Part shown: piece by piece, positions 4,954-17,519 of the stretch
How the letters are laid out: every line of letters starts with the position of its first letter
How positions within the stretch are numbered: the first letter of the stretch is position 1
Origin: Embleya hyalina
GTDB taxonomy: Bacteria > Actinomycetota > Actinomycetes > Streptomycetales > Streptomycetaceae
Length of the DNA stretch: 64,000 nucleotides
NCBI RefSeq assembly: GCF_003967355.1
Contig: NZ_BIFH01000051.1
Span: 42,337-106,336 of the forward strand
Reading direction: 5' to 3'
Program-made: the position numbers and the translations under genes
Notes under the pieces: generated by a model
Databases searched by the model: none
Seen by the model: only the letters and a program-made list of their open reading frames with translations
What the model was told of the DNA's origin: nothing

Positions 4954-6228
4954 TCAACTCCATGCGGGGCCGTGCCCCGTGGCCAGCGACAACACGACGC
5001 CGCGCAGCGCGTTGACGATCTCGGGTTTGTCCGCGTCCGGGTCGGCGGCCACCTCGTCGGCGAGCCGGCGCGCGGTGGCCAGGTCCTCCGGTTGCGGCGC
5101 GTGCAGGTTGATCAGTACGCGGGCCATGAACAGCCGCCCCCACGGCCCGGGTTCGGACATCGCCAGCGCCCGGCGCAGCGCGTCCCGCACGTGTCCGTCC
5201 GGCAGCCCCTGGCGTTGTCGGGCGGTGGCGGCCAACGCCCATTCCTCGGCGGCCAGTTGCTCGACGTCGCGGTACATGCTCTTGAGCGCCAGGTCGCGGT
5301 CGAGTTCGAGGGCGCGCAGCAGGTGTCGGCCCGAGCGCAGCGTGGCCTGTTCCAGTACGGCGGGTTCGGTGGCCGGGCCGGACTCCAACTCGCGCACCAC
5401 GATGCCGCGCCAGTATTCGTGCCGGGCCAGCTCGACGGCGAACGAGCCCTCGGGGGTCCCCACTTCGTCCCAGGCGGGCAGCACGAGCCGGGCCACCCGC
5501 TCGACCAGCGGCTCGATCTTGTGCGCCCACCCGGGCGCGGCCACCACGATCTCGATGTGGCGCCGGGTCGCGTACAGCAGGGCCCGGGCCGCCTCCGCGT
5601 TGCCGGGGTCCACCGTGAGCCAGGAGGCGAGCAGTTCGACCACGTCGTCGTAGCGGCCCTCCTCGACGTCGCGCGACGCCTCGGCCAGCGCCTCGCGGAC
5701 CAGGTCGGCCCGGGCGTTGGCGATCACCGACGGCGGGAAGCCGGACTCGCGGACCAGGTCGAGGTGTTCGCGCGCGGACAGCGGATCGCGCAGGCGCCGA
5801 TCGGCGGCCAGGGTCAGATGCGGGGCGAGCAGGTCGCGCGGCAGCCGCTCGCGGACCTCCTGGACGGTCGCCGCCGGTACCGGGCCGCCCGCCACCGCCT
5901 CCAGGTGCTCGTGCATCCGGTCCCAGAAGGCGCTGTCGTGGTACAGCTCGGCCCAGTGCGCCAACGCCCTTTTCCAGTACGGGTGGGCCGCCTCGCTCTC
6001 GCCCGCCAGCTCCAGGTCGTAGGCGCGCGCGTGCAGCGCGACCGCGAGGTGGTGGGTGCGCCACGGTCCGCCGCCGGTGGTCCACAACCGCTCGGCCGGC
6101 GCGCTCCACGGCTGCGCGTCGGCGCCGGTGCCCAGGCTCGCGTACGCCTCGCCGTCCAACGGCCCGTCGCCCGCGCCGTGTTCGCGCAACCTGGCGGCGA
6201 ACGCGCGCAGCTCCGCGCGGTCAGTCAT
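4954..6228 (-). CDS. Hypothetical helical-repeat (TPR-like) protein, about 424 aa
   Basis: GC3-biased ORF. The ATG at 6228 overlaps the stop of the upstream AAA+ gene (ATGACTGA). Confidence 0.6.
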   Translation of the reverse strand: MTDRAELRAFAARLREHGAGDGPLDGEAYASLGTGADAQPWSAPAERLWTTGGGPWRTHHLAVALHARAYDLELAGESEAAHPYWKRALAHWAELYHDSAFWDRMHEHLEAVAGGPVPAATVQEVRERLPRDLLAPHLTLAADRRLRDPLSAREHLDLVRESGFPPSVIANARADLVREALAEASRDVEEGRYDDVVELLASWLTVDPGNAEAARALLYATRRHIEIVVAAPGWAHKIEPLVERVARLVLPAWDEVGTPEGSFAVELARHEYWRGIVVRELESGPATEPAVLEQATLRSGRHLLRALELDRDLALKSMYRDVEQLAAEEWALAATARQRQGLPDGHVRDALRRALAMSEPGPWGRLFMARVLINLHAPQPEDLATARRLADEVAADPDADKPEIVNALRGVVLSLATGHGPAWS

Positions 6229-8242
6229 CGGCGCCCCCCACCACGAGCGCACCGGCCACCACCCGCACCCGGACCGCGCCGATCGGCCGGCCGGCGGCGT
6301 CGGCCTCGTCGAGCAGGCGCAGCACGCCCGGCACCACGGCGGTCACGCAGCGGTTGACGCCGCGTGCCGCCTCCTCCGGTCGGCCGCGCCAGGCGACGGT
6401 GGCGATGTGGTCGGCGGCCTCCTCGGTCCAGGTCAGCGCGACGCCGAGCTGGTCGCGCAGCCGCGCGGCGAGTCGGGTCAGGCCGTTCTCCGCGATGCCG
6501 CGCAGTTCGGTGGGGCCGAACGGCGAGTAGAGGATCACCTCGTCCACCCGGTTGAGGAATTCGGGCCGGAAGAACCCCTCCATCGTGCGGCGCAGCCGGG
6601 CGCTCGCGGCGGTGTGCCCGGTCGAGCCCTCGGCCAGGATCGAGCCGATCAGGTTGTCCACGCTGTCCACGTCGTCCTCGACCGCCTCGGCCGCGGAGTG
6701 GGTCGCGCCGAGGTTGGTGGTCAGGATCACCACCGCGTCGTGCGCCTCGCGCACCGGGCCCGCCGGATCGCCGATCCGGCCCTCGTCGAGCAGCCGAAGG
6801 AGCGCGTCGAGCACCCGCGCGTCGGCCTTCTCCACCTCGTCGAACAGGAACACCCGACGCGGGTTGTCGCGCAGGCCGTTGGTGAGCTTGCCCTCGCCGA
6901 AGCCGACGTAGCCGGGCGGGGCGCCGATGAAGTTGTTGATCGACTCGCGCGCGCTGAACTGGCCCATCTCGAAGACCAGGACGTCGTCCTCGGAGCCGTA
7001 GACGACCTCGGCGAGCAGCCGGGCGGTCATCGTCTTGCCGGAGCCGCTGGGGCCGCACAGCAGCAGGGCCGCGCGCGGCCGGTCGTCCGGACGGAAGCCG
7101 CGGGTGAGCGAACGTTTGATGAGTTCGACGTGGAAGGCGAGCCGCTCGACCACGCTCTCCTGGCCGATCAGGCCCGCGCGCAGCCGGCGTACCGCCTCCT
7201 CGGGGGACATCGGGGTGCCGGCCCGGTCCGGTTCGGGCTCGGCCGGCTCGCGGTAGTAGGTGTCGGCGAACCGGCGCAGCCGGTCCAGGTCCAGGCCGAT
7301 GTCGCGGAAGAACCCGGCCGCCAGGCCGTTGGGGGTGTCCAGGAGCGCGGCGAGCAGGTCGCGTTCGGTGATCCGGGCGCCGGTGTCCGGGTCCGGATCG
7401 GGGCGGCTCGCGGCGAACGTCGCCGCGCGGCGCAGGGTCTGCCGCAGCGGCTCGTCGGCGGTGATCGGGCCGGTGCCCGCCGGGCCGCGGACCCGGGCGC
7501 CGGTCAGCGCGATGGTCTGTTCGCGCAGCGCCCGTACGTCCCGGCGCAGGAACAGGAAGGCCTGCTCCAGGAGTCCGCCCGGGGTGGTGGCCAGCGCGTG
7601 CAGCAGCATCGCGATGCCGCACTGCCGCCGGCCGAGTCCGCTCGCCTCGGCGACCATCATCGCCGGCACCCGCCGGGCGCCGGGGGCGAACGCGGTCTCG
7701 TCGATCGACCCGTCGGCCCGGCACACCTCCGCCGCCGGGCGCGCCGCGGCCACCTCGGCCCGCCAGGCGTCGAGGTCCACCCGGCCGTAGCCGACGAGCA
7801 GGTCCACCGCGCCCGGCTCCAGGCGGGGCAACAACTCCGCGAGCAGCGCACGTTCGTCGACGTAGCCGGTGTCCGCCGCGGCGGCGAAGCCGGCCCACAG
7901 GTCGGCGGTGACCGGCAGGCCGCCGAGCGCGCCCGCGCCCCGGCCGTTGCCGCCCGCTCCGGCGGCCGGTCCGCCGCCGCCGAGCAGGCCGGCCGCGAGC
8001 ACGTCCGGCGGGATGCCCTGGCGGGCGAACAGGCCGCAGGCGCGCCCGCCGTCGATCCGGGCCAGGGCGATCAGCGTGTGGGCGACCTCGACCGTGTGCG
8101 CGCCGAGTTCGCGGGCCACCGCCGAGGCGGTCTCGAACCGGCGGGTGGCCACCAGCAGCCCGCTGTCGAACACCTGCTCCGGCACTCCCAGGATGTCCGT
8201 CTCCACGTCGCCTTCTCCCCCGCCTCGCCGATCCGATCGCAC
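6221..8242 (-). CDS. Clp/Hsp100-family AAA+ ATPase with a Clp_N-like N-domain and a single D2-type (AAA_2) ATPase module, 673 aa
   Basis: IGQESVVERLAFHVELIKRSLTRGF…LLLCGPSGSGKT…FLFDEVEKA…ILTTNLGA…FRPEFLNRVDEVILYSP is a canonical ClpA/B D2 domain. N-terminal Clp_N-like repeats are present. There is no D1 ring and no ClpP-binding IGF loop. Confidence 0.85.
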   Translation of the reverse strand: MRSDRRGGGEGDVETDILGVPEQVFDSGLLVATRRFETASAVARELGAHTVEVAHTLIALARIDGGRACGLFARQGIPPDVLAAGLLGGGGPAAGAGGNGRGAGALGGLPVTADLWAGFAAAADTGYVDERALLAELLPRLEPGAVDLLVGYGRVDLDAWRAEVAAARPAAEVCRADGSIDETAFAPGARRVPAMMVAEASGLGRRQCGIAMLLHALATTPGGLLEQAFLFLRRDVRALREQTIALTGARVRGPAGTGPITADEPLRQTLRRAATFAASRPDPDPDTGARITERDLLAALLDTPNGLAAGFFRDIGLDLDRLRRFADTYYREPAEPEPDRAGTPMSPEEAVRRLRAGLIGQESVVERLAFHVELIKRSLTRGFRPDDRPRAALLLCGPSGSGKTMTARLLAEVVYGSEDDVLVFEMGQFSARESINNFIGAPPGYVGFGEGKLTNGLRDNPRRVFLFDEVEKADARVLDALLRLLDEGRIGDPAGPVREAHDAVVILTTNLGATHSAAEAVEDDVDSVDNLIGSILAEGSTGHTAASARLRRTMEGFFRPEFLNRVDEVILYSPFGPTELRGIAENGLTRLAARLRDQLGVALTWTEEAADHIATVAWRGRPEEAARGVNRCVTAVVPGVLRLLDEADAAGRPIGAVRVRVVAGALVVGGADD

Positions 8243-8251
8243 CGGTTCGGA

Positions 8252-9616
8252 TCACGCCTCGTCACCGGCGAGCAGCCGCTCGGCCAGGTCCGCCCGGGCC
8301 CGGGCCGCCTCGGGCCGTCCCGCGCCCAGGTCCCGTACGCCCAAGGCCAGTATTCGGTACGCGGCGGCCGTCGCGATCGCCCGGCCGAGTCGTCCCTCGC
8401 GCAGTTCCGCCGGCGACGACTCGAGCAGCGTGGCGGCCAGTTCCGGGTCGGCGCGGGTGACCCGGTGCAGCACCAGGCCCGGGCCCAGCGGCGTGCGGCG
8501 GACCCAGCCCGCACCGTAGCGCCGGAGCAGGTCGCGCGCGGCACCGGCCACCATCGAGTCGTCGCCCTCCAGCGTGCCGAGCAGCAGCCGCGCGGGCCAG
8601 GTGTCGGCGTAGGGCTCGTCGACCACGTGCGGCTCGTGCTCGGCGCCATCCGGGCCGGCACCCGCCGTCCCGTCGCCGCCGCCCGCCGCCCCGCCGACGC
8701 CCGACAGCCCGTGTCGCAGCAGCCGCACCGCGCCCGCGTCGTCGCCACGCTCCAGCAGATCCGCCGCCGCGACCACCAGGGCCGCCGCCGTCCCGGGCCG
8801 CACGCCGGCCGCCGCCCCGCCGTCCCGCGCCGCGACGGCGGCCCGGTGCAGCTCGCGATACTCGGCGTGGTCCGGATCGAGCATCGCGGCCTCGTACAGA
8901 TACCGGACCGCCCGTTCCGGGTCGCCACCGGTCAGCTCCCGATGCCCCTCGACGGCGAGCCGATGGGCCAGGCGCGGCGCGGCGGCGGAGCAGCCCTGTT
9001 CGAAGGCGAGCCGGTAGCAGGTGCGCGCCGCGGCCTCCGCACCGCGCGCCGCGGCCCGGTCGCCGATCACGCACACCCATTCGGCCCGCGTACCCGGCGC
9101 ACCGGGCGGCGCGACCACCGGCAGCAGCCGCCACAGGTCGTGGTCGGGATGTCGGGCCGGCTGCTCGAAGCGCTCCTCCAGGCAGTCCAGGACCCGGGTG
9201 GTGGCGGCGACCCGCCAGCGCCGGACGGGCGCGCGCGGATCCAGGCCGCCGAGCACGTCGAGCAGCGCGCGCTCCAGCGGGCGCGGTCCGGCCTCCAACG
9301 CCTTCTCCAGCGTGGTCCAGGTCTCCGCGAAGTCGCTGCCGGGCTGGACCACCCACCAGCGCAGCACCGCGTCGATCGCGCGGACGTAGTGGCCCCGGGG
9401 GTCGCGCCCGAGCACGTCGGCGAGCATGCGCGCGGCGGTCTCCGGCTGCTGCGTGGCCACGGCCTGGATCTGGCTCTCGATCAGTCCCCGGTTGCGGACC
9501 ACCTCGGCGTCGGAGGCGTTGGCCAGGAAGTCCCGCATCGCGACGAGTCGAGGCTCCACCTCGCCCTCCCGATGCGTGGCCATCCGGAACGCCCGCACCG
9601 CCCCGGCATCCGACAT
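8252..9616 (-). CDS. Hypothetical helical-repeat (TPR-like) protein, 454 aa; first gene of the operon
   Basis: GC3-biased ORF that ends 9 nt before the AAA+ gene. An intergenic promoter region lies upstream. Confidence 0.6.
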   Translation of the reverse strand: MSDAGAVRAFRMATHREGEVEPRLVAMRDFLANASDAEVVRNRGLIESQIQAVATQQPETAARMLADVLGRDPRGHYVRAIDAVLRWWVVQPGSDFAETWTTLEKALEAGPRPLERALLDVLGGLDPRAPVRRWRVAATTRVLDCLEERFEQPARHPDHDLWRLLPVVAPPGAPGTRAEWVCVIGDRAAARGAEAAARTCYRLAFEQGCSAAAPRLAHRLAVEGHRELTGGDPERAVRYLYEAAMLDPDHAEYRELHRAAVAARDGGAAAGVRPGTAAALVVAAADLLERGDDAGAVRLLRHGLSGVGGAAGGGDGTAGAGPDGAEHEPHVVDEPYADTWPARLLLGTLEGDDSMVAGAARDLLRRYGAGWVRRTPLGPGLVLHRVTRADPELAATLLESSPAELREGRLGRAIATAAAYRILALGVRDLGAGRPEAARARADLAERLLAGDEA

Positions 9617-10050: not shown

Positions 10051-10623
10051 ATGTCGGTGAAACATGGCTTTCCACTGATTTTGTTGCTGTTTGCCCTGGT
10101 CACGGGGTGCGCGGTGGACTCCGGTGTGCGCGTCGCGGGCAAGCCGGAACCGGTCGGGATCCCGCTCGCGGCGCCGCCCTCCGGGGCGGGCCTGAGCATC
10201 GATCCGGTTCGGGTGCTGCGGGAGGACGCGGGGGTCGGCGTCAAGATCAAGGCGGTGCTCACCCCGTCCTGTGGCACGTCGTATCCGGTGAGCGCGCAGT
10301 ATCTGAGCGCGCCGGGAGTGCCGGGGACGCCGCTGCCCGTCGCGGTGGTGTCGGTGTTCCACTGCGGGCCCGAGAACTGCACGATGCGCCGGGACGTCGC
10401 CGCGTACGTGTACCGGCTCTTCGAGGACGGGCACACCGAGCGCGTGTTCGCCTCGGAGGAGCCGGGGAGTCGGATCGAGGTCGGAAAGCGGATGTTGATC
10501 CTTCAGCTGCCGGCGTACCGGGCCAACGAGCCGGCGATCTGCCCCTTCGGCGAGCACGGGGTCGGATTGCGGTGGGATGGTTCGCAGTTCGTCGAGAACG
10601 AGGTCGGAAAGGGTGTGTCGTGA
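10051..10623 (+). CDS. Lipoprotein (lipobox LVTG-C), hypothetical, 190 aa
   Basis: Signal peptide followed by a Cys lipobox. The stop overlaps the response-regulator GTG start (GTGA). Confidence 0.7.
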   Translation: MSVKHGFPLILLLFALVTGCAVDSGVRVAGKPEPVGIPLAAPPSGAGLSIDPVRVLREDAGVGVKIKAVLTPSCGTSYPVSAQYLSAPGVPGTPLPVAVVSVFHCGPENCTMRRDVAAYVYRLFEDGHTERVFASEEPGSRIEVGKRMLILQLPAYRANEPAICPFGEHGVGLRWDGSQFVENEVGKGVS

Positions 10624-11309
10624 GCAAACCGCACGTGCTCGTCGTGGAGGACGACGAGGTCATCCGCGAGGCGACGCAACTCAATCTGGAACGGGACGGG
10701 TTCCGGGTGAGCACCGCCGCCGACGGCGAGGCCGGGCTCGCCGCGTTTCGCGGCGAACGGCCGGACGTGGCGCTGCTGGACGTGATGTTGCCGCTGATGA
10801 ACGGGATCAGCCTGTGTCGGCGAATCCGGGCGGAGAGCCTGATCCCGGTGATCATGGTCTCCGCGCGCGACGACCCGATCGACATCGTGGTCGGTCTGGA
10901 GGCGGGCGCCGACGACTACGTGACCAAGCCGTTCGACACCGTGGTGCTGCTCGCCCGGATCCGGGCGCTGCTGCGCCGCGCGCAGCGCACCGCCGGCCCG
11001 GACGAGGAGTCGGGGCCGCTGCGCTTCGGCGACCTGGAGATCGACCCGGACGGCGTGCAGGTGCGCCGGTCCGGCGAGTTGCTCGCGCTGACCCCGACCG
11101 AGATGAAGCTGCTGCTGCGCTTCGCCGAGTCACCGGGCACGGTGCTGAGTCGGGACACCCTGCTCGAAGGCGTCTGGGAGTACGCCTGGGGCGGCGACAC
11201 CCGGGTCGTGGACGTGCACGTCCAGCGGCTGCGCAACAAGGTGGGCCCGGGCCGGATCGAGACGGTCCGCGGCTTCGGCTACAAGCTGCGCCCGGGACCC
11301 GTCGGGTGA
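10620..11309 (+). CDS. OmpR/PhoB-family response regulator, 229 aa
   Basis: Receiver domain (VLVVEDDE…LLDVMLPLMNG…ADDYVTKPF) plus a winged-helix output domain (…VDVHVQRLRNKV…GFGYKL). Confidence 0.9.
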   Translation: MSKPHVLVVEDDEVIREATQLNLERDGFRVSTAADGEAGLAAFRGERPDVALLDVMLPLMNGISLCRRIRAESLIPVIMVSARDDPIDIVVGLEAGADDYVTKPFDTVVLLARIRALLRRAQRTAGPDEESGPLRFGDLEIDPDGVQVRRSGELLALTPTEMKLLLRFAESPGTVLSRDTLLEGVWEYAWGGDTRVVDVHVQRLRNKVGPGRIETVRGFGYKLRPGPVG

Positions 11310-12520
11310 GTCTGCGCTGGCGAATCTCGGCGGTGGTCACGGTGGTCAGCGTGGCGGTCGCCGTCGCGCTGAGCCTGACCGTGCACTTCGCCTTCGCCTA
11401 CAAGCAGGCGGACGAGGCGCGCAAACTCCAGATCGACCGGATCGACCTGGCCCTGCGCGAGTACCTCCGGACCGGACAGCCGACGTTCGGCAGCCGGCTG
11501 GACGACCCCCGGGTACCGGCGGCGCTGCGCCGGGCGGTGCGCGACGGCGACCGGGCCACCGAGTTGTCCGAGGGCCGGATCTGGGCGGCGGTCGGGGTGG
11601 ACGGGCACATCCTGTCGCTGCGCTCCAGCTATCGGGACCGGACCAGCGACCTGGCCTCGCTCGACCGGGTGCTGCTCATCGGCGCGGCCGGCGTGGTGGT
11701 GTGCGGGTCCGGGGTGGGCGTGCTGATCGGGGCGCGGCTGTCGCGTCGGCTGCGGCGGGCCGCCGACGCGGCTCGGCGGGTCACCGCGGGCGAGCGGTCG
11801 ATCCGGGTGCGGGCGGCGATCGGCGGCAGCGGTCGGGACGAGGCGGCGGAGTTGGCCACGGCGGTGGACGCGATGGCCGACGCGTTGCAGGCGCGGCTCG
11901 ACGCGGAGCGCCGGGTCACCGCCGACATCGCGCACGAGTTGCGCACACCGCTGACCGGACTGAGCGCCGCCGCCGACCTGTTGCCCGCGGATCGGCCGGG
12001 CGAGTTGGTCCGCGATCGGGTCCGGGCGCTGCGTTCGCTGGTGGAGGACGTGCTGGAGGTGGCCCGCCTGGACACCGCGACCCAGCGGGCCGACCTGACC
12101 GAGGTACCGCTGGGCGCGTTCGCCGCCCGGCGGGTGGCCGCGCTCGCGCCCGACGCCGAGTTGCGGGTGATCGGGGCCGAGGTGGTGGTCACCGACCCGA
12201 GGCGGTTGGAGCGGATCCTGGCCAACCTGCTGACCAACGCGACCAAGCACGGGCTCGCGCCGGTGGTGGTGGAGGTGGACGGACCGCGGATCCGGGTCGT
12301 GGACGCGGGGCCGGGTTTTCCGGCGACGCTGCTGCGGGAGGGGCCCAGCCGCTTCCGGAAGGGCACCGACGACCGGGCGGCCGGCGGGCACGGTCTGGGC
12401 CTGACCATCGCGATGGGTCAGGCGGCGGTGCTGGGTGCGTCCCTGACGCTGAGCAATCCGGAGGCGGGCGGCGCGCTGGCCGAACTCACGCTGCCTTCGG
12501 GGGCGTCGGCGGTCGAGTGA
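11306..12520 (+). CDS. Sensor histidine kinase, 404 aa
   Basis: N-terminal TM segment. H-box ADIAHELRTPLT. N/G boxes (NLLTNATKHG, GHGLGLTIA). GTGA overlap with the response-regulator stop. Confidence 0.85.
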   Translation: MSLRWRISAVVTVVSVAVAVALSLTVHFAFAYKQADEARKLQIDRIDLALREYLRTGQPTFGSRLDDPRVPAALRRAVRDGDRATELSEGRIWAAVGVDGHILSLRSSYRDRTSDLASLDRVLLIGAAGVVVCGSGVGVLIGARLSRRLRRAADAARRVTAGERSIRVRAAIGGSGRDEAAELATAVDAMADALQARLDAERRVTADIAHELRTPLTGLSAAADLLPADRPGELVRDRVRALRSLVEDVLEVARLDTATQRADLTEVPLGAFAARRVAALAPDAELRVIGAEVVVTDPRRLERILANLLTNATKHGLAPVVVEVDGPRIRVVDAGPGFPATLLREGPSRFRKGTDDRAAGGHGLGLTIAMGQAAVLGASLTLSNPEAGGALAELTLPSGASAVE

Positions 12521-12572: not shown

Positions 12573-13160
12573 GTGGGTGGTGCGGTCGGGTTGGTGCTGG
12601 CGGCCGGAGGTGGGCGGCGGCTCGGGGGGCGGGCCAAGGCCCGGTTGGTGCATCGCGGGCGGCCGCTGGTGGAGTTCGCGGTCGCCGAGTCGCGCCGCGG
12701 CGGGTGCGACCGGGTCGTGGTGGTACTCGGCGCGGAGGCCGACGCGGTGCTCGCCGAGGCCGAGTTGACCGGCTGCGTCGTGGTGCGCAACGACGACTGG
12801 GCGAGCGGCATGGGCTCATCGCTCGCCGCCGGGGTCGCCGCGCTGCCCGCCGACGCCGACGCCGTCGTGGTCACCCTCGTGGACATGCCCGGCGTGGGCG
12901 CGGCGGCCGTGGCCCGGTTGATCGCCGCGCACGCCGCGCCGGAGGACCTGATCGCGGCGGCCTACGCGGGTCGGCGCGGCCATCCCGTCCTGTTCGGGCG
13001 CGCCTGGTGGGCCGAGTTGGCGGCCGGGGCCGAGGGGGACGCCGGCGCCCGGGCGTTGCTCGCCGAGCGGCGGGACCGGGTTCGGCTGATCGAGTGCGCC
13101 GACGTCGCCGACCCGTTCGACATCGACACGCCCGCCGACCTGGACCGGCTGGACCCCTGA
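12573..13160 (+). CDS. MobA/MocA-like nucleotidyltransferase (molybdenum-cofactor guanylyl/cytidylyl-transferase family), 195 aa
   Basis: GLVLAAGGGRRLGG…K motif. RBS AAAGGGG lies 6 nt upstream of the GTG. Confidence 0.65.
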   Translation: MGGAVGLVLAAGGGRRLGGRAKARLVHRGRPLVEFAVAESRRGGCDRVVVVLGAEADAVLAEAELTGCVVVRNDDWASGMGSSLAAGVAALPADADAVVVTLVDMPGVGAAAVARLIAAHAAPEDLIAAAYAGRRGHPVLFGRAWWAELAAGAEGDAGARALLAERRDRVRLIECADVADPFDIDTPADLDRLDP

Positions 13161-13782: not shown

Positions 13783-14150
13783 GGGCACCTCCGCGTCCGG
13801 TCGTCCCGGCCCCGTCCGGGTTATCTCGTCATCCTCCACTCGACCGAACTGTATGCGAGTGCCGGGTCCGGCGCGTCGAACGACGCGCCTATAAACGGAC
13901 AGATCATCCAACCGGCCTCGAACGGGCGTACTCGGTGCGGCTTCTGACGCCATTTGAGATCTTTATCCGTGCATTCCGAAGCGAATCGCATCGAAAGTGC
14001 GCCCGATTCGCTCGAACACGATATCTCGAACTGGTGTACGAATAACGGAATATGCCCGCCGAATGAACCCGAACGGTCCACTGGTACATACCTCTACCGG
14101 TGGACCGGGGGCAGGTCGCAGACTCGGATGCGACATCTTCGGAGGTGAGC

Positions 14151-14897
14151 ATGGATTCGCCTTTCCGCATCGTGCGGCCCCCTCGTCCGCTCGAAGAGCC
14201 GTATCCCTCCCGTGCCCGGATCAACGAACAGGTCGGCGCCGTCTGGGAATGGGGGATGCGCGAGGATCCCGCCGCGGCCGTCCGGCTCTACCACCAACTC
14301 GGCGAGGTCGCCGCCCGGGTGCTCGGCGGCACCGATCGGGACACGCTCAACGTGCGCCGCGCGTACGCGCACTTCGTCGGCATCGACGGCGATCCGCAAC
14401 GGGCCGCCCGGTTGTTGGCCGGGCTGGTCCCGGTGGCCGGCCAGGCGCTGGGCCCCGGCGACTGGGTCACCCTCGACATGCGGCTGTGCCACGCCAGGTT
14501 CCTCGGCGAGGGCGGCGAGCCGCGGGGCGCGACGACGTTGTTCGCCCGGCTGGTCGCGGACATGACCCGCGCGCTGGGCGCCGAGGCGGAGAGCACGCTG
14601 ACCGCACGCAGCTACCTGGCCCGCTTCACCGGGGAGTGCGGCGATCCGCTGCGCGCCGCGGAGATGTACGGCGCGCTCGTGATCGACTCGATCCGGATCC
14701 TGGGCGCCGACTGCCTGGGGTCGTTGGTCGCCCGGGCGGGTCACGCCGTCAACCGCGGCCTGGCCGGGCACCGCGGCGAGGCCCTGGCCCTGTACGACCC
14801 GCTGGTCGCCGACTTCGCCCGGGTGTTGGGCCCGGATCACCCGGAAACCCGGCAGACCCAGACCTGGCAGCGATATTTCCGAGGGGGAAACGGCTGA
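14151..14897 (+). CDS. Tetratricopeptide-repeat protein, hypothetical, 248 aa
   Basis: RBS GGAGGTG precedes the ATG. The body is built of TPR-like helical pairs. Confidence 0.6.
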   Translation: MDSPFRIVRPPRPLEEPYPSRARINEQVGAVWEWGMREDPAAAVRLYHQLGEVAARVLGGTDRDTLNVRRAYAHFVGIDGDPQRAARLLAGLVPVAGQALGPGDWVTLDMRLCHARFLGEGGEPRGATTLFARLVADMTRALGAEAESTLTARSYLARFTGECGDPLRAAEMYGALVIDSIRILGADCLGSLVARAGHAVNRGLAGHRGEALALYDPLVADFARVLGPDHPETRQTQTWQRYFRGGNG

Positions 14898-14954: not shown

Positions 14955-17519
14955 GTGGTCATGGAAGCACTGCGCGACGGGGATCCGACGCGGCTGGGGC
15001 CGTATCGGCTGCGCGGCCGGCTGGGCGAGGGCGGGATGGGCGAGGTCTTCCTCGGCACGTCCCCGAGCGGCGTCCGGGTGGCGGTCAAGACCGTGCGTCC
15101 GGAGTTCGCGACGGACCACGGTTTCCGGGACCGGTTCCGGCGCGAGATAGACCTGGCGCGGCGGGTGGACAGCGCCTGGACCGCGCCGATCGCCGAGGCC
15201 GATCCGGACGCGCGACCGCCGTGGTTGGCCACCGAATACCTGACCGGGCTCTCGTTGTCCGAGGCGATCACGACGTACGGCGCGCTGCCCGAGGGCGCGC
15301 TGCGCATCATGGGCGCGCAGTTGGCCGAGGCACTGATGGCGATCCATCGCGCGGGCCTGATCCATCGCGACCTCAAGCCGTCGAACGTGATCCTCGGTCG
15401 GGATCGGCTGCGGGTGATCGACTTCGGCATATCCCGGGCGGCGGACGAGGGCGGCCAGGGGCTGACCGGGACCGGTCGGGTGGTCGGGTCGCCGTCGTTC
15501 ATGTCGCCGGAACAGGCGGGCGGGCGGCGGATCGGACCGGAGAGCGACGTGTTCTCGCTGGGCTCGGTGCTGGTCTTCGCGGCCACCGGGCGGGGGCCGT
15601 TTCACGTGGAACCGCCGGTGGCGCAGTTGCAGATGATGATGCGGGTGTTGCGCGACGCACCCGCGTTGGAGGAAGTACCGGAGGGACTGCGGGACTTGGT
15701 CCGGCACTGCCTGGACAAGGAGCCCGAGGCGCGACCCACGCCGGCCGAGATCCTGGCCCGCTGCATGGGCGACTCCGAACCACCGGTGGGCACTTCGTGG
15801 TTGCCGTCGGCGCTCGCGGCCGAGTTGGAGCGGCGGCACCTGGGCGACGCGTTGTCGCCGGGTCCGGTGGGCGCCGCGACGGACGAACCTCTCGGCCGCG
15901 CGGTGGGGATCGGCGCGGACGCGGGTACGCCGACGACGGTCGCCGTGGCGGTGTCCGAGTCGCCGGGCGAACGGGTCGCCGCGCCGCCGCCGGCTCTGTC
16001 GCCGACCGTCGCCGTGGCCGAACCGCCGCCCGTCGGGCGGGGGTTGGCCCGTCGCGCGTTCCTGATCGGCGGCGGCGCGGTCGCCGTGGCCGCGGTGGGT
16101 GGCGGCGCGGGCTGGTTGTTGATGGGCGACGACGCGGATCCGGGCAGGCGGGTGTGGTCGTATCCGGCGGGCGCCGGCGGTGGTTCGTCGCTGAGCGCGC
16201 AGGGCGATCTGGTGTTCCACGTCGCCGACGGCGCGGGCGGCGGCAAGGGCCAGGTCACCGCGATCGACGCGGAATCCGGCCGGAAGGTGTGGCGCAAGGC
16301 CACCGCGGGCAACTCGGTGTCCGCGCCGCTGGCGACCAAGGACCACCTGTTCGTCGCCTCCTGGACGGTGGACCCCTCGGCCTCGGTCCCGGAGCGGTCC
16401 CAGCCGACCCTGTGCACGGTGCACGCCTTCGACCCGGTCGAGGGCGAACTGCGGTGGAGCCTGGAGTACAAGGCCCGCTGGGTGAACCTGCCGGCCGGCC
16501 TGGATCAGGGCCTGCTGTACCTGGGCGTCGCCGAGGAGAACTCCTACAGCACCGGACCCGGGGCGATCGTCGCGATCGACGCGGCCACGCACCGTGAGGT
16601 GTGGAGGGCGGGGCTGACGGCGGATGCCGGCATGCCGGGGACGCCGACGTTCGGGAACGACCTGGTGGTCGCCGTCGCCCAGCCCAAGGCGTCCTACAAC
16701 CCGTCCGCGGTCCACGCCTTCGACCGGTCCGGCAAGCCGAGGTGGCAGGTCCCGTTCAAGAGCCGGCCGTGGGGTCGCGATCCGGTGATCGTCGGGGACC
16801 GGGTGCTCACGGTGGTGACCGACAGTTCCAGCGGCGGCGTGTTCACCTGGCAGCGATACGCGCTCGACGCGACCACCGGGGCGGTGTTGTGGGGGCCCAT
16901 CCCGGTCGACGGCGGCCAGGCCCGTTCGCTCACCGTGGCCGGCGACCACGTCTTCATGGTCTACGACGGGGCCACCGACGAGGCCAGGTCGGGTGTCGTG
17001 GCGGTGGACCCGCTCACGGGCTCGCAGTCGTGGAAGTTCGAGATGGAGGCCCGCAACGCGAGCGAGATCACCCGGGTGGGCGACGTGGTCTACGTCGCGT
17101 GTCACCCCTCCAAACCGCAGGCGGGCGTGACACCGAGCGCGACCACGACCACCACCCCGCCGCCCACCAACCCGCCGGCCACGTCGGTGTCCACGGGCAA
17201 GGTCTACGCGCTGGAGGCGAGTACGGGCGTGGTGCGGTGGTCGGCCGAGATGCCCTCGTACGGCGCGCTGACGGCCCCCGTCGTCGCGGGCGACAAGGTC
17301 TACGTCTCGATGGACGCCGCCAGGTCGGACGCCTCGCGCGACGACGCGGCCCAACTGCTGGCCCTGCACACCAAGACGGGCAAGGTCGCCTGGAAAGCCC
17401 CCCTCCCGTCCCCGGTATCGTCCCGCCCCTTGGCGGCACGGGGCAACGTATACATCGCCCAGTGGCTCCGCCCCGACGAGGGCAACTCGAACGCCTCGGT
17501 CATCGCATACGAGCAGTAG
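14955..17519 (+). CDS. Ser/Thr protein kinase with C-terminal PQQ-type beta-propeller repeats, 854 aa
   Basis: Kinase subdomains GEGGMGEVF, VAVK, HRDLKPSNVIL, DFGIS, SPE. A Pro-rich linker and TM segment follow. Repeated 'W..…G…V…DG.VY' propeller blades complete the protein. Confidence 0.9.
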   Translation: MVMEALRDGDPTRLGPYRLRGRLGEGGMGEVFLGTSPSGVRVAVKTVRPEFATDHGFRDRFRREIDLARRVDSAWTAPIAEADPDARPPWLATEYLTGLSLSEAITTYGALPEGALRIMGAQLAEALMAIHRAGLIHRDLKPSNVILGRDRLRVIDFGISRAADEGGQGLTGTGRVVGSPSFMSPEQAGGRRIGPESDVFSLGSVLVFAATGRGPFHVEPPVAQLQMMMRVLRDAPALEEVPEGLRDLVRHCLDKEPEARPTPAEILARCMGDSEPPVGTSWLPSALAAELERRHLGDALSPGPVGAATDEPLGRAVGIGADAGTPTTVAVAVSESPGERVAAPPPALSPTVAVAEPPPVGRGLARRAFLIGGGAVAVAAVGGGAGWLLMGDDADPGRRVWSYPAGAGGGSSLSAQGDLVFHVADGAGGGKGQVTAIDAESGRKVWRKATAGNSVSAPLATKDHLFVASWTVDPSASVPERSQPTLCTVHAFDPVEGELRWSLEYKARWVNLPAGLDQGLLYLGVAEENSYSTGPGAIVAIDAATHREVWRAGLTADAGMPGTPTFGNDLVVAVAQPKASYNPSAVHAFDRSGKPRWQVPFKSRPWGRDPVIVGDRVLTVVTDSSSGGVFTWQRYALDATTGAVLWGPIPVDGGQARSLTVAGDHVFMVYDGATDEARSGVVAVDPLTGSQSWKFEMEARNASEITRVGDVVYVACHPSKPQAGVTPSATTTTTPPPTNPPATSVSTGKVYALEASTGVVRWSAEMPSYGALTAPVVAGDKVYVSMDAARSDASRDDAAQLLALHTKTGKVAWKAPLPSPVSSRPLAARGNVYIAQWLRPDEGNSNASVIAYEQ

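Follow-up and report, generated by a model that had tools for sequence, protein, structure and literature searches.

The second gene of a seven-gene operon in Embleya hyalina encodes an ATPase with two tandem Clp N-domains and one D2-type AAA+ ring, here called Clp(N-N-D2). The gene is real and intact, and its product is an unusual one-ring Clp/Hsp100 unfolding motor. Most probably it remodels proteins without degrading them, serves a private Hsp70 machine and forms the core of a likely conflict or immune-type system. The analysed window was a stretch of 64,000 nt (contig NZ_BIFH01000051.1, positions 42,337-106,336 of the forward strand), and positions in it are collected in Table 1.

Gene call and domain content

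The minus-strand open reading frame 6221-8242 carries a high-GC coding signature (GC at codon positions 1/2/3 of 0.79/0.53/0.95). The start was placed at GTG 8206, backed by the ribosome-binding site GGGGGAGAAGG and by relatives annotated from MDTDILGVPEQ, which gives a product of 661 aa. When the product of 6221-8242 was searched against Pfam, Clp_N was matched in two stretches (E 3.4e-11), AAA_2 over its full length (E 3.5e-34) and ClpB_D2-small at E 5.7e-4, with 20.3 bits slightly below the cut-off of 21.9; among the NCBIfam models the protein aligned only to the D2 part of ClpB, ClpV, ClpA, ClpK and ClpG, covering positions 562-821 of the 853 in the ClpB profile. This annotation bears out an earlier note on the same DNA, in which the protein was read as an N-domain with a D2-only ring (AAA_2, ClpB_D2-small). 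The Clp_N-like fold proposed there for the N-terminal region was also right, but not the single domain: two complete N-domains stand in tandem.

Table 1. Features of the Embleya hyalina operon and of its Clp-like ATPase
Feature	Position	Strand	Basis or remark
Gene 1 'TPR1', 454-aa Ala/Leu-rich helical protein	8252-9616	-	GC3 0.92, translation
Gene 2, Clp(N1-N2-D2) single-ring Hsp100-type AAA+ ATPase	6221-8206	-	661 aa, start GTG 8206
N1, first complete Clp N-domain, aa 15-153, eight-helix bundle	7748-8164	-	Pfam Clp_N, AF2, hhalign
N2, second complete Clp N-domain, aa 179-317	7256-7672	-	family profile, hhalign
D2-type AAA+ large domain, aa 335-560	6527-7204	-	Pfam AAA_2 E 3.5e-34, Foldseek
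Walker A GPSGSGKT	7031-7054	-	D2 motif
Pore loop GAPPGYVG	6902-6925	-	D2 motif
Walker B LFDEVEKA	6824-6847	-	D2 motif
Sensor-1 TTN	6713-6721	-	D2 motif
Hypervariable loop without IGF/L motif	6572-6712	-	loop analysis
Arg finger FRPEFLNR	6548-6571	-	D2 motif
D2 small (lid) domain, aa 565-637	6296-6514	-	Pfam ClpB_D2-small E 5.7e-4, AF2
Sensor-2 AARGVNR	6350-6370	-	A614, R615 invariant
C-terminal beta-hairpin after lid domain	6233-6277	-	AF2
Gene 3 'TPR2', 424 aa, His/Trp domain + TPR	4954-6228	-	start ATG 6228
Gene 4, J-domain-like protein without HPD, 153 aa	4486-4947	-	family profile to J-domains
Gene 5, GrpE-like protein, 240 aa	3764-4486	-	frame analysis, family profile
Gene 6, divergent full-length Hsp70, 855 aa	1200-3767	-	Pfam HSP70, AF2, Foldseek
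Gene 7, small Zn-ribbon (CPLC...CPAC) + TPR-like hairpin, up to 136 aa	788-1198	-	frame analysis, translation

The D2 motor and ClpP docking

Across 47 family members there is no variation in Walker A, the GYVG pore loop, the Walker B DE, the sensor-1 TxN, the RPEFLNR arginine finger or the sensor-2 AR. By Foldseek the D2 superposes on ClpB NBD2 (TM 0.85, rmsd 3.2-3.8), and the family profile matched ClpC D2 at E 7.6e-101 and Skd3 at E 2.6e-69 in the PDB. The loop equivalent to the ClpP-docking loop of ClpA/ClpC varies from 24 to 60 aa among the 47 members; an [ILVM]-G-[FLM] tripeptide was sought in this loop and was present in none (0/47). Since the IGF/L loop is absent, ClpP docking is judged impossible for the Clp-like ATPase. 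That the protein is a class-II Clp ATPase feeding ClpP through a non-canonical docking element would suit a D2 nearest by profile score to ClpC, a ClpP partner, and is nevertheless very improbable: the loop is hypervariable in sequence as well as in length, no clpP gene was found in the Embleya operon or in the syntenic loci examined, and proteolysis in some relatives is supplied instead by fused CHAT domains.

Absence of D1 and integrity of the gene

HMMs of D1 and of D1-small/M-domain were built from canonical ClpB, with which 18/19 and 17/19 control loci, respectively, were recovered, and were run against six frames of the 64-kb window; no D1 or M-domain remnant was matched anywhere in it, even at E<=10. 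Together with the tripeptide count, this agrees with the claim made earlier that D1, M-domain and IGF/L loop are all missing. In ClpB the M-domain is the Hsp70-docking and repression element; because neither it nor D1 is present here, recruitment by Hsp70 in the ClpB manner is impossible.

The open reading frame directly upstream lies in the same frame, with one TGA between, and taken alone this could hint at a disrupted longer gene. As a detached D1 module it was rejected, being a separate conserved helical protein without AAA+ similarity. One might still suppose that D1 was lost from a ClpB/ClpC paralogue, by truncation or decay to a pseudogene or through an assembly or frameshift artefact, and that the gene has no function of its own; this reading is refuted by the present results and retains next to no probability. 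Besides the missing D1 signal, a D1-less architecture of ~600-690 aa is common to >100 sequence clusters from ~10 phyla, down to 30% identity, each catalytic residue is invariant, and dN/dS of the whole protein is 0.27-0.37, as under purifying selection.

Tandem N-domains

The AF2 model shows two eight-helix bundles in the N-region (pLDDT 88), with a Gly-rich, low-confidence loop at aa 77-96. By hhalign, N1 was matched to N2 at 98.3% (E 1.6e-14) and to the canonical ClpB N-domain at 96.8% (E 2.2e-10), the corresponding value for N2 and ClpB being 98.7%; in the family profile alignment N2 covers the whole ClpC N-domain (i-Evalue 4.8e-15). The N-region evolves faster than the motor (dN/dS 0.39-0.50 versus 0.15-0.23 for D2). 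The Glu positions by which ClpC binds phospho-arginine show no in-register conservation in N2 in the family alignment, and recognition of a phospho-mark is therefore speculative.

The seven-gene operon

The operon spans 9616-788 on the minus strand, its genes translationally coupled and ordered as in Table 1. Gene 1 matched no Pfam family and has dN/dS 0.27-0.33; 20 loci have a homologue 5' of the Clp-like gene, and their titles name Actinomycetota in 19 cases and Thioalkalivibrio, for a MAG, in one. Paralogy of TPR1 and TPR2 found no demonstrable support (hhalign 30%). The TPR2 start codon lies inside GATGACTGA and overlaps the Clp stop by 8 nt (ATGACTGA). Its N-terminal domain of ~200 aa, with invariant H59, H66, W92, W102, R126 and H155, has no known relative and gave no match in a PDB search, and its C-terminal half matches consensus TPR proteins (E 1.4e-19).

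Neither gene 4 nor gene 5 was matched by Pfam. The J-like family profile matches a series of J-domains, best of them T. thermophilus DnaJ2 at a marginal E of 0.0016; the HPD column is unconserved, and W16, N21-P22-Y23, F28, A76 and H94 are invariant or nearly so. The GrpE-like family profile aligned over nearly the full length of T. thermophilus GrpE (3a6m), again at a marginal E (0.0037); the gene overlaps the J-like stop with its start (TGATG) and the Hsp70-like start with its stop (ATGA).

In gene 6 the Pfam HSP70 match is confined to profile positions 1-373, and all catalytic motifs are kept in the NBD (1-376). Beyond the NBD come an additional beta-sandwich (~396-471), then a domain resembling SBD-beta (~489-582), and last a long bundle of helices (592-839). 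The AF2 model (pLDDT 87.9) was matched by Foldseek to near-full-length DnaK/BiP (TM 0.75-0.77), so that the fold is DnaK-like through SBD-beta; there is no EEVD tail. Gene 7 starts 2 nt past the Hsp70-like stop, has dN/dS 0.10-0.30 and has homologues directly 3' of the Hsp70-like gene in 39 loci from several phyla.

Conserved gene order and distribution

Gene neighbourhoods were compared between 64 family loci and 19 control loci of canonical ClpB, with denominators that vary per partner. TPR2 was found beside family members in 57/60 loci, the J-like gene in 55/59, the Hsp70-like gene in 51/55 and the GrpE-like gene in 40/58, and the same order of partners was seen at none of the 19 canonical ClpB loci; independent gene calls agree with this conserved order. 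The Hsp70-like gene lies downstream of the Clp-like gene in those 51/55 loci as against 0/19 controls, and this synteny across phyla strongly supports the idea, raised conditionally in the earlier note, that the ATPase cooperates with the adjacent Hsp70. Of the general chaperone context, the note had seen the Hsp70 neighbour and missed the J-like, GrpE-like and Zn-ribbon-TPR parts of the cycle as well as the kinases and the ClpN-carrying TIR and CHAT effectors of relatives. For the route through TPR proteins that the note put forward as possible, TPR2 would be the candidate, being the most constant partner and translationally coupled to the ATPase. A Hop/CHIP-style TPR clamp on an EEVD or acidic tail is unsupported by the C-termini of the Hsp70-like and Clp-like proteins, as an acidic end is conserved in neither family.

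Family members are rare and patchily distributed (N-region matches at E<=1e-3 in only 32 representative proteins among 1.84 billion), and its hosts are mostly large-genome, morphologically complex lineages. The locus was syntenic in 8/8 full-length Embleya loci recovered and was not found in plasmid and phage collections, a pattern closer to that of a stable chromosomal function than to that of a mobile defence island.

Kinases and ClpN fusions in relatives

A Ser/Thr kinase directly follows the ATPase in ~46/63 family loci, and the catalytic Lys, Asp and DFG are retained in these operon kinases. Within 10 kb, TIR or CHAT occurs at 21/64 family loci and at 0/19 canonical ClpB controls, fused in 19 of those 21 to the same tandem ClpN module. 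ClpN-bearing frames in relatives comprise TIR-ClpN, CHAT-ClpN, TIR-CHAT-ClpN, ClpN-FHA-kinase and CHAT-ClpN fused to a two-ring Clp; some relatives also have Hsp70-vWA fusions and WD40/TPR arrays. Neither a kinase gene nor one for TIR, CHAT or a second ClpN is present in the Embleya operon, and the whole 64-kb window has no TIR, CHAT, second ClpN or operon-type kinase gene. The sole nearby kinase (14955-17519, Pkinase-PQQ propeller) lies on the opposite strand, ~5 kb off, and resembles the operon kinases of relatives only weakly. A conflict role for the Embleya operon is thus extrapolated from relatives. The link of relatives to kinases and to ClpN-carrying TIR/CHAT effectors moves the likely biology away from general proteostasis and towards conflict or signalling.

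The frequency of the kinase and its intact catalytic residues could point instead to a signalling or developmental module, in which the ATPase/Hsp70 set would act as assembly-disassembly factor for a Ser/Thr-kinase complex, with ClpN docking the kinases, and would regulate development or the cell envelope rather than defence. The flanking of Streptomyces versions by ClpN-FHA-Pkinase and TPR-Pkinase genes, and the morphologically complex hosts, would fit. We consider this unlikely: TIR and CHAT, the commonest ClpN fusion partners outside Actinomycetota, are effector domains and not signalling scaffolds, and Embleya and ~17 other loci keep the chaperone core without any kinase.

Somewhat stronger, though still doubtful, is the reading as a bi-chaperone specialised for housekeeping or stress, in which a private disaggregase set akin to ClpB/DnaK would resolve aggregates or fold a particular client class, with no conflict or signalling role and with the TIR, CHAT and kinase neighbours elsewhere as secondary recruitments. 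All four functional classes of the KJE + ClpB network are gathered in one operon, the motor and the Hsp70 NBD keep their catalytic motifs intact, Embleya has neither effector nor kinase in cis at a locus whose synteny is stable within the genus and which plasmid and phage collections lack, and Skd3 is an example of a lone NBD2-type ring with potent disaggregase activity (PMC7343390). Against it stand the rarity and patchiness of the family, a J-like protein without the HPD motif needed for canonical Hsp70 stimulation, the lack of an M-domain for Hsp70 coupling, the kinase immediately after the ATPase in most family loci, ClpN-tagged TIR/CHAT in 19 loci and never near canonical ClpB, and the WD40/TPR arrays and Hsp70-vWA fusions of relatives, which are typical of conflict systems.

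Proposed mechanism

For the preferred reading, a remodelling motor within a chaperone-gated conflict system, we propose the following. The D2-type motor is most likely hexameric and would thread polypeptide through its GYVG pore loops, with the two N-domains serving as a putative recognition module. The ATPase would be the dedicated partner of a private, atypical Hsp70 machine from the same operon (Hsp70 with a divergent SBD, J-like protein without HPD, GrpE-like protein and Zn-ribbon-TPR), and the physical bridge to that machine would most likely be TPR2, with its start codon overlapping the stop of the ATPase gene. The joining of the core, across ~10 phyla, to a kinase and often to ClpN-carrying TIR or caspase-like CHAT effectors and kinases suggests that the ClpN domains act as an adaptor through which ClpN-tagged partners reach the ring, whether ClpN contacts ClpN or both bind a common, possibly phosphorylated, ligand. 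Ring and Hsp70 cycle may then remodel these partners and so activate, threshold or reset them. The Embleya operon would be a pared-down version that lacks both kinase and effector in cis. No description of a Clp(N-N-D2)-Hsp70 system was found in the searched literature or in PADLOC, whose models give no match to the other six operon proteins.

Comparison with known systems

With ClpB/Hsp104 the protein shares the Clp N-domain fold, the D2 motifs including a GAR-type sensor-2, the D2-small domain, the lack of a ClpP-docking loop and a genetic tie to an Hsp70/J/GrpE set. It differs by having two N-domains instead of one and neither D1 ring nor coiled-coil M-domain, and its score with the NCBIfam ClpB model is 172.7 bits where the cut-off is 1232; a private, divergent Hsp70 paralogue takes the place of DnaK as its partner, and its relatives are encoded with kinases and TIR/CHAT genes.

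ClpC is the top sequence-profile match for N2 and D2 (E 7.6e-101), and its N-domain recognises adaptors and phospho-marks, to which the role of the ClpN module here could plausibly be analogous. Unlike ClpC/ClpA, Clp(N-N-D2) has no D1 and no IGF/VGF/LGF ClpP loop (0/47); the phospho-arginine Glu residues of ClpC lack in-register conservation in N2, and the kinases found with the family belong to the Hanks-type Ser/Thr class and are not McsB.

Skd3 (human CLPB) likewise has one NBD2-type ring, preceded by helical repeats that form a substrate or regulatory domain, and is not coupled to ClpP (profile E 2.6e-69, Foldseek probability 1.0). Its ring is an autonomous disaggregase that requires the N-domain in cis and works independently of Hsp70 (PMC7343390), whereas Clp(N-N-D2) nearly always has a dedicated Hsp70 system encoded beside it; the Skd3 N-terminus is ankyrin instead of tandem ClpN, and Skd3 resides in the mitochondrial intermembrane space, Clp(N-N-D2) being bacterial and cytoplasmic.

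Among phage-defence proteins, Dodola DolB and the PADLOC candidate PDC-M37B are also single AAA_2-type (ClpB-like) ATPases, partially matched by the Clp-like protein at E 1.4e-11 and 2.4e-24, respectively. The match is limited to the AAA core (aa ~342-511) and includes no ClpN domains, and the partners DolA and M37A are absent from the Embleya operon.

The proposed system would be analogous to conflict systems gated by chaperones, as described by Kaur, Burroughs, Iyer & Aravind (eLife 2020/2021), namely MoxR-vWA ternary and GAP1-N2 GTPase systems with Hsp70, GrpE and DnaJ/TPR themes, shared-adaptor logic and rare ClpN-vWA fusions (PMC7159879, PMC8195603). The set of Clp(N-N-D2), kinase, TPR2, J, GrpE, Hsp70 and ZnR genes is not described in these two papers, and the AAA+ here is a Clp D2-type unfoldase instead of MoxR, no GTPase or tubulin is included, and the adaptor is tandem ClpN in place of EAD or Death-like domains. 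Common to both are an NTPase chaperone with co-chaperones, TPR/WD40 proteins, kinases, vWA and TIR/caspase-like effectors, one adaptor domain on both NTPase and effectors, and hosts that are mainly complex, large-genome bacteria.

Clp-like gene and coding signature

The G+C content of the window is 72–76%, so that many long ORFs are spurious; real genes were therefore chosen by codon-position GC, and frame analysis recovered operon genes missed by ORF lists and Pfam. A scan for sigma-70 promoters and intrinsic terminators gave no information in 75% GC DNA. The ORF of the Clp-like ATPase is clearly coding (GC1/2/3 = 0.79/0.53/0.95). Its preferred start is the GTG at 8206, which is preceded by GGGGGAGAAGG and matches the annotated N-terminus MDTDILGVPEQ of Embleya proteins at 98% and 84% identity. 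Current database labels for this Hsp100 architecture are only 'AAA family ATPase' or a mislabelled 'ClpC'. Among Embleya orthologues dN/dS was 0.27–0.37, with D2 tightly constrained (0.15–0.23) and the N-region (0.39–0.50) evolving two to three times faster than D2.

Domain architecture and motor motifs

Pfam placed Clp_N in two stretches of the ORF, followed by a full-length AAA_2 match (E 3.5e-34) and a marginal ClpB_D2-small match (E 5.7e-4); no ankyrin repeats were matched. In NCBIfam the alignments of the protein were confined to the D2 part of ClpB, ClpV, ClpK, ClpA and ClpG, with scores far under every equivalog cut-off (for ClpB, 172.7 bits against 1232.1). An AlphaFold2 model built from a 47-sequence family alignment was confident (mean pLDDT 88.1) and contained two eight-helix bundles, N1 and N2; a linker joins these to an AAA+ large domain of alpha/beta type, after which come the helical small domain and a short C-terminal beta-hairpin. 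N1 and N2 are duplicates of each other (hhalign 98.3%, E 1.6e-14) and both match the canonical ClpB N-domain (96.8% and 98.7%, respectively), so that the arrangement typical of the Clp N-domain superfamily, an eight-helix bundle with two Clp_N repeats, is present twice. In the family profile N2 aligned to the complete ClpC N-domain. Recognition of phospho-arginine by the N-domains, as in ClpC, was considered; the N2 positions aligned to ClpC E32 and E106 are not Glu, and a conserved Glu lies one position earlier.

The C-terminal half of the family profile matched ClpC D2 best (E 7.6e-101), then ClpB, Hsp104, ClpA and Skd3, and Foldseek superposed the AAA+ module on NBD2 of Thermus thermophilus ClpB (TM 0.85, rmsd 3.2–3.8 Å). 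Invariant in 47/47 aligned members were Walker A (G385xSGxGKT392), the pore loop G428APPGYVG435, Walker B (D456-E457), sensor-1 (T496xN498), the Arg-finger motif R547-P-E-F-L-N-R553 and sensor-2 (A614-R615). As judged from these motifs the D2-type AAA+ unfoldase module is intact and its pore loop is predicted to grip substrate, and the description of the protein in the earlier note as an N-domain joined to a D2-only AAA_2 ring holds.

ClpA and ClpC bear a ClpP-docking tripeptide between sensor-1 and the Arg finger. The corresponding loop of the family is 24–60 residues long and unconserved, and [ILVM]-G-[FLM] occurs there in none of the 47 members, as the earlier note had proposed for the IGF/L loop of the Embleya protein. 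A ClpP-coupled ATPase is highly improbable; a clpP gene was found neither in the operon nor in the gene-called syntenic loci.

Search for a hidden D1 ring

The earlier note had also held that the D1 ring and the coiled-coil M-domain are missing, and had named a D1 module frameshifted immediately upstream and a truncated pseudogene as the findings that would overturn it. Neither was borne out. Canonical two-ring ClpB genes supplied HMMs for D1 and for the D1-small/M-domain region, which recovered 18/19 and 17/19 control loci, respectively; in six frames of the whole 64-kb window neither gave a match, even at E<=10. The protein has a single AAA+ module, and its AlphaFold2 model is devoid of a long coiled coil. 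The ORF directly upstream (8252-9616) shares the frame of the Clp-like ORF, with one TGA between them. It was rejected as a hidden D1 since it encodes a distinct Ala/Leu-rich helical protein of 454 residues with no AAA+ similarity, and in 20 related loci it stands as a conserved gene of its own. A pseudogene was ruled out by more than 100 sequence clusters with the same Clp_N + AAA_2 architecture of ~600–690 aa, down to ~30% identity, together with the invariant motifs and the dN/dS among Embleya orthologues; it is essentially excluded as an explanation, and on the sequence evidence the truncation hypothesis can be considered refuted. The gene product combines a duplicated, faster-evolving N-domain with a D2 motor lacking both a recognisable ClpP-docking element and an M-domain.

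Operon and partner proteins

Seven genes run from 9616 to 788 on the minus strand, packed so closely that start and stop codons overlap or adjoin, in the order helical TPR1, Clp(N1-N2-D2), TPR2, J-like, GrpE-like, Hsp70-like and a small Zn-ribbon-TPR protein. The TPR2 ATG lies within GATGACTGA and overlaps the ATPase stop by 8 nt. Partner family profiles were built from syntenic loci. The J-like profile matched several genuine J-domains (best E 0.0016); the HPD column is unconserved in the J-like family, and the window protein reads ...SADRF... there. GrpE-like had no Pfam match, and its family profile aligned at E 0.0037 with GrpE of T. thermophilus, covering positions 67–195 or nearly the whole length. 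The C-terminal half of TPR2 is a true TPR (E 1.4e-19 to consensus TPR proteins), and its N-terminal ~200 residues, for which Pfam and PDB returned no relative, contain invariant H59, H66, W92, W102, R126 and H155 and near-invariant H60, D71, E73 and H137; this His/Trp domain may hold a site for metal binding or catalysis. TPR1 and TPR2 were considered as paralogues, which hhalign (30%) did not support.

Hsp70-like keeps every catalytic signature of the NBD, and its confident AlphaFold2 model (pLDDT 87.9) superposes on near-full-length DnaK/BiP including SBD-beta (TM 0.75–0.77); a beta-sandwich is present in addition, as is a helical bundle of some length. As sole homology query its C-terminal region returned one match. 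Recognition of an EEVD or acidic tail by a TPR 'carboxylate clamp' was rejected: neither the Hsp70-like nor the Clp-like family has a conserved tail.

Coordinates, sizes and occurrence of the features described (locus handles denote homologous loci in other genomes; occurrence is counted over family loci where enough contig remains)
Feature	Position	Size	Occurrence or other loci
Clp-like ORF, full	window 6221-8242(-)		
Clp(N1-N2-D2) from GTG	window 6221-8206(-)	661 aa	
N1, eight-helix bundle (AlphaFold2)	aa 15-153		
N2, eight-helix bundle (AlphaFold2)	aa 179-317		
TPR2			57/60 loci
J-like		153 aa	55/59 loci
GrpE-like		240 aa	40/58 loci
Hsp70-like		855 aa	51/55 loci
Zn-ribbon gene			39 loci
Kinase			~46/63 loci
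Plus-strand coding regions (GC3 phase)	window ~10560-11309, ~11250-12520		
MobA-like NTP transferase	window 12573-13160		
TPR protein	window 14100-14897(+)		
Ser/Thr kinase fused to PQQ-type beta-propeller	window 14955-17519(+)	854 aa	L004-L006, L008, L010, L011
TIR-ClpN			L034, L059
CHAT-ClpN			L031, L046, L022
TIR-CHAT-ClpN			L052
CHAT-ClpN + full two-ring (D1+D2) Clp ATPase, one protein	L039:2993-7612, L030:2-5851, L084:2051-6775		
ClpN-FHA-Ser/Thr-kinase, downstream of Streptomyces versions	L002:20507-21964		L019, L025, L033
Hsp70-vWA (vWA C-terminal)	L030:19690-21804, L042:18701-20839, L054:18901-21003, L084:19155-21422		
Rhomboid protease and three unknown genes	L085:11950-12864		
Second paralogous cluster	L002:2411-9847(-), L086:19354-22013		L018-L020, L025, L033
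TPR1 homologue with LuxR/GerE-type HTH	L023:4957-7833		

Conservation of the gene context

One genome per species was scanned, giving 80 loci: 61 of the single-ring family and 19 with canonical two-ring ClpB, which served as control. With three further loci (L001-L003) the family set comprised 64. Partners were found by iterative HMM searches on six-frame ORFs, and the resulting counts agreed with independent gene calls carrying precomputed Pfam. The order Clp(N-N-D2), [Ser/Thr kinase], TPR2, J-like, [GrpE-like], Hsp70-like, Zn-ribbon-TPR is rigid, with the bracketed genes variably present; by comparison, no Hsp70 gene of any kind was found near canonical ClpB in the 19 control loci. The ATPase is genetically locked to a divergent Hsp70, predicted from its signatures to be catalytically competent, with J-like, GrpE-like and TPR-type accessories of its own. 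The Embleya operon has no kinase gene, as in about 17 other loci.

By record title the hosts belong to Actinomycetota, Chloroflexota, Acidobacteriota, Planctomycetota, Verrucomicrobiota/Lentisphaerota, Armatimonadota, Desulfobacterota, Calditrichota, Pseudomonadota and candidate phyla. The single-ring family is nevertheless rare: an N-region phmmer search of 1.84 billion representative proteins returned 32 matches at E<=1e-3, mostly 600–745 aa long. A mobile element was considered and rejected, as TPR2 had no match on 72,556 plasmids and the N-region none in 50,697 phage records.

Several local variants were recorded. In one metagenomic relative (L085) the rhomboid protease and three unknown genes part the Clp-like gene from the kinase-TPR2-J-GrpE-Hsp70 block, so the ATPase can be set apart while the cluster persists. 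In Streptomyces and Pseudonocardiaceae a second, paralogous cluster, divergent or convergent, adjoins the main operon and holds Hsp70-like, GrpE-like and a TPR2/J-like relative, with an NBD-only Hsp70 in some. The HTH in one TPR1 homologue could mean that TPR1 has a regulatory function in certain lineages; this homologue comes from a MAG labelled Thioalkalivibrio with an actinobacterial-type operon (L023), a label possibly due to a binning error. In the window itself, the plus-strand coding regions at ~10560-12520 appear unrelated to the operon and to mark its upstream boundary; the MobA-like gene follows, then the TPR protein and the kinase-propeller gene, the latter on the other strand at a distance of ~5 kb from the operon. 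A homologue of this kinase occupies the corresponding position in 6/8 full-length Embleya loci.

ClpN-tagged effectors and kinases in relatives

Many loci hold a second ORF matching the tandem ClpN region, with two or three complete ClpN copies at the C-terminus; types were assigned by Pfam. TIR and CHAT HMMs were seeded from these examples and found either domain within 10 kb in 21/64 family loci, a lower bound since many contigs end early, versus 0/19 controls. The loci divide into 16/32 outside Actinomycetota and 5/32 inside, and in 19 of the 21 the effector domain is fused to ClpN. Genes for the CHAT-ClpN-two-ring giants lie just upstream of the single-ring Clp gene; with CHAT as caspase-like protease, these giants are self-contained unfoldase-caspase chimeras, and the giant fusion of L030 also includes a kinase. 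The ClpN-FHA-kinase, whose gene is preceded by that for a TPR-kinase in the Streptomyces versions, would tie the ClpN module to phospho-threonine signalling. TIR, CHAT and kinase proteins of the same loci bear the same ClpN module. That the cluster is an assembly factor for kinase signalling is favoured by these ClpN-bearing kinases and the frequent kinase gene, and disfavoured by the kinase-free operons of Embleya and about 17 other loci; we regard it as improbable.

Common neighbours are a second Hsp70 paralogue fused to vWA, WD40/TPR arrays and extra kinases. The Hsp70-vWA gene comes after the Zn-ribbon gene in non-actinobacterial versions, and in L084 it is followed by a Pfam-recognisable GrpE gene. 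The Embleya 64-kb window contains no second ClpN ORF, and none of TIR/CHAT-ClpN, Hsp70-vWA, WD40/TPR arrays and extra kinases of this type. A specialised housekeeping bi-chaperone, favoured by this Embleya gene content and disfavoured by the ClpN-fused effectors of the relatives, appears unlikely.

Proposed mechanism

Going beyond architecture, selection and synteny, we infer as the best-supported reading that the ATPase would assemble, like Skd3 and ClpX, into one hexameric ring and would remodel its clients and not degrade them. The translationally coupled TPR2 might bridge ring and Hsp70 machine, replacing the absent M-domain. The tandem ClpN could act as an adaptor that brings ClpN-tagged effectors and kinases to the ring, by the 'shared adaptor domain' logic of bacterial conflict systems (PMC7159879, PMC8195603), and the combined Hsp70/Hsp100 activity would activate, threshold or reset the tagged effectors. 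The Embleya operon may be a reduced form with clients encoded elsewhere or bound via TPR1. A bolder reading, which we hold to be somewhat less likely than not, is an undescribed multi-phylum chaperone-gated immune or programmed-cell-death system. In it the Clp N-domain, co-opted as a Death-domain-like adaptor, would couple ring and Ser/Thr kinase to TIR/CHAT effectors with the same ClpN module, a TPR bridge would take the place of the M-domain in Hsp70-Hsp100 cooperation, and Embleya would keep a reduced or domesticated version.

Tandem ClpN on kinases as well as on TIR and caspase-like effectors points to a role as adaptor, comparable to that of Death/EAD domains in bacterial and eukaryotic immunity. 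The Clp N-domain is a known substrate and adaptor receptor on unfoldases. Were the conflict reading true, Hsp70/Hsp100-type unfolding machines would join the regulators of prokaryotic immune effectors, and a defined 7–10 gene cassette would be at hand for experiments; under the conservative reading too, an unannotated Hsp100 architecture and six unnamed partner families are documented.

Comparison with known systems

PADLOC v2 (including Dodola and PDC-M37) gave only partial AAA-core matches for the ATPase, to PDC-M37B and DolB, and no match for the five other operon proteins tested (TPR1, TPR2, J-like, GrpE-like and Hsp70-like); PHROGs gave only generic matches. A known defence system was rejected on these grounds. 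A description of the Clp(N-N-D2)/Hsp70/TPR gene set was not found in the open-access full-text literature, where the nearest accounts concern other Hsp70- or ClpN-containing conflict systems (PMC7159879, PMC8195603, PMC11090510). The Aravind-lab surveys mention no more than infrequent ClpN-vWA fusions, a single fusion of a Death-like domain to Clp, and a theme of Hsp70 + GrpE + DnaJ/TPR centred on a GTPase (PMC7159879, PMC8195603), and the Hsp70-like proteins of CoCoNuT stand in a different context. The conflict systems of Kaur et al. 2020/2021 carry the same adaptor on the NTPase and on nearby effectors, a feature matched by ClpN in the relatives (19 loci) but not in the Embleya window itself. 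Their cores, a MoxR AAA+ with vWA co-chaperone or a GAP1-N2/DO-type GTPase, are not matched: Pfam found no MoxR, vWA or GTPase in the Embleya operon, and vWA occurs in family loci only as the Hsp70-vWA fusion of some relatives. What is apparently new is the N-N-D2 Clp/Hsp100 architecture within a widely distributed, undescribed Hsp70-kinase-TPR system, which in many lineages includes ClpN-tagged TIR/CHAT effectors.

Hsp100-Hsp70 cooperation is understood almost wholly through the M-domain of ClpB/Hsp104, a coiled coil inserted in the D1 small domain where Hsp70 docks. ClpB/Hsp104 have two AAA+ modules and an M-domain, whereas the Clp-like protein has one module and no M-domain; common to both are the AAA_2 D2, GYVG pore loop, Arg finger, sensor-2 and D2-small. 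The Clp-like protein probably works like ClpB/Hsp104 but is no member of that group. A D2-only ring without M-domain that in about 10 phyla is nonetheless tied to an Hsp70, J-like and GrpE-like set of its own is a natural experiment, in which an alternative coupling interface becomes directly testable. ClpA, ClpC and ClpX differ by their IGF/IGL/VGF/LGF docking tripeptide, absent from the family, which is predicted not to be a ClpP partner of their type. The closest architectural analogue is Skd3/human CLPB, with a repeat N-domain and, as here, a single NBD2-type ring without D1 (profile E 2.6e-69 to 7ttr); the N-terminus of Skd3 consists of ankyrin repeats, whereas two Clp N-domains form the N-region of the Clp-like protein. 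Skd3 is Hsp70-independent (PMC7343390), and the Hsp70 linkage of the family suggests the opposite of such an Hsp70-independent disaggregase activity.
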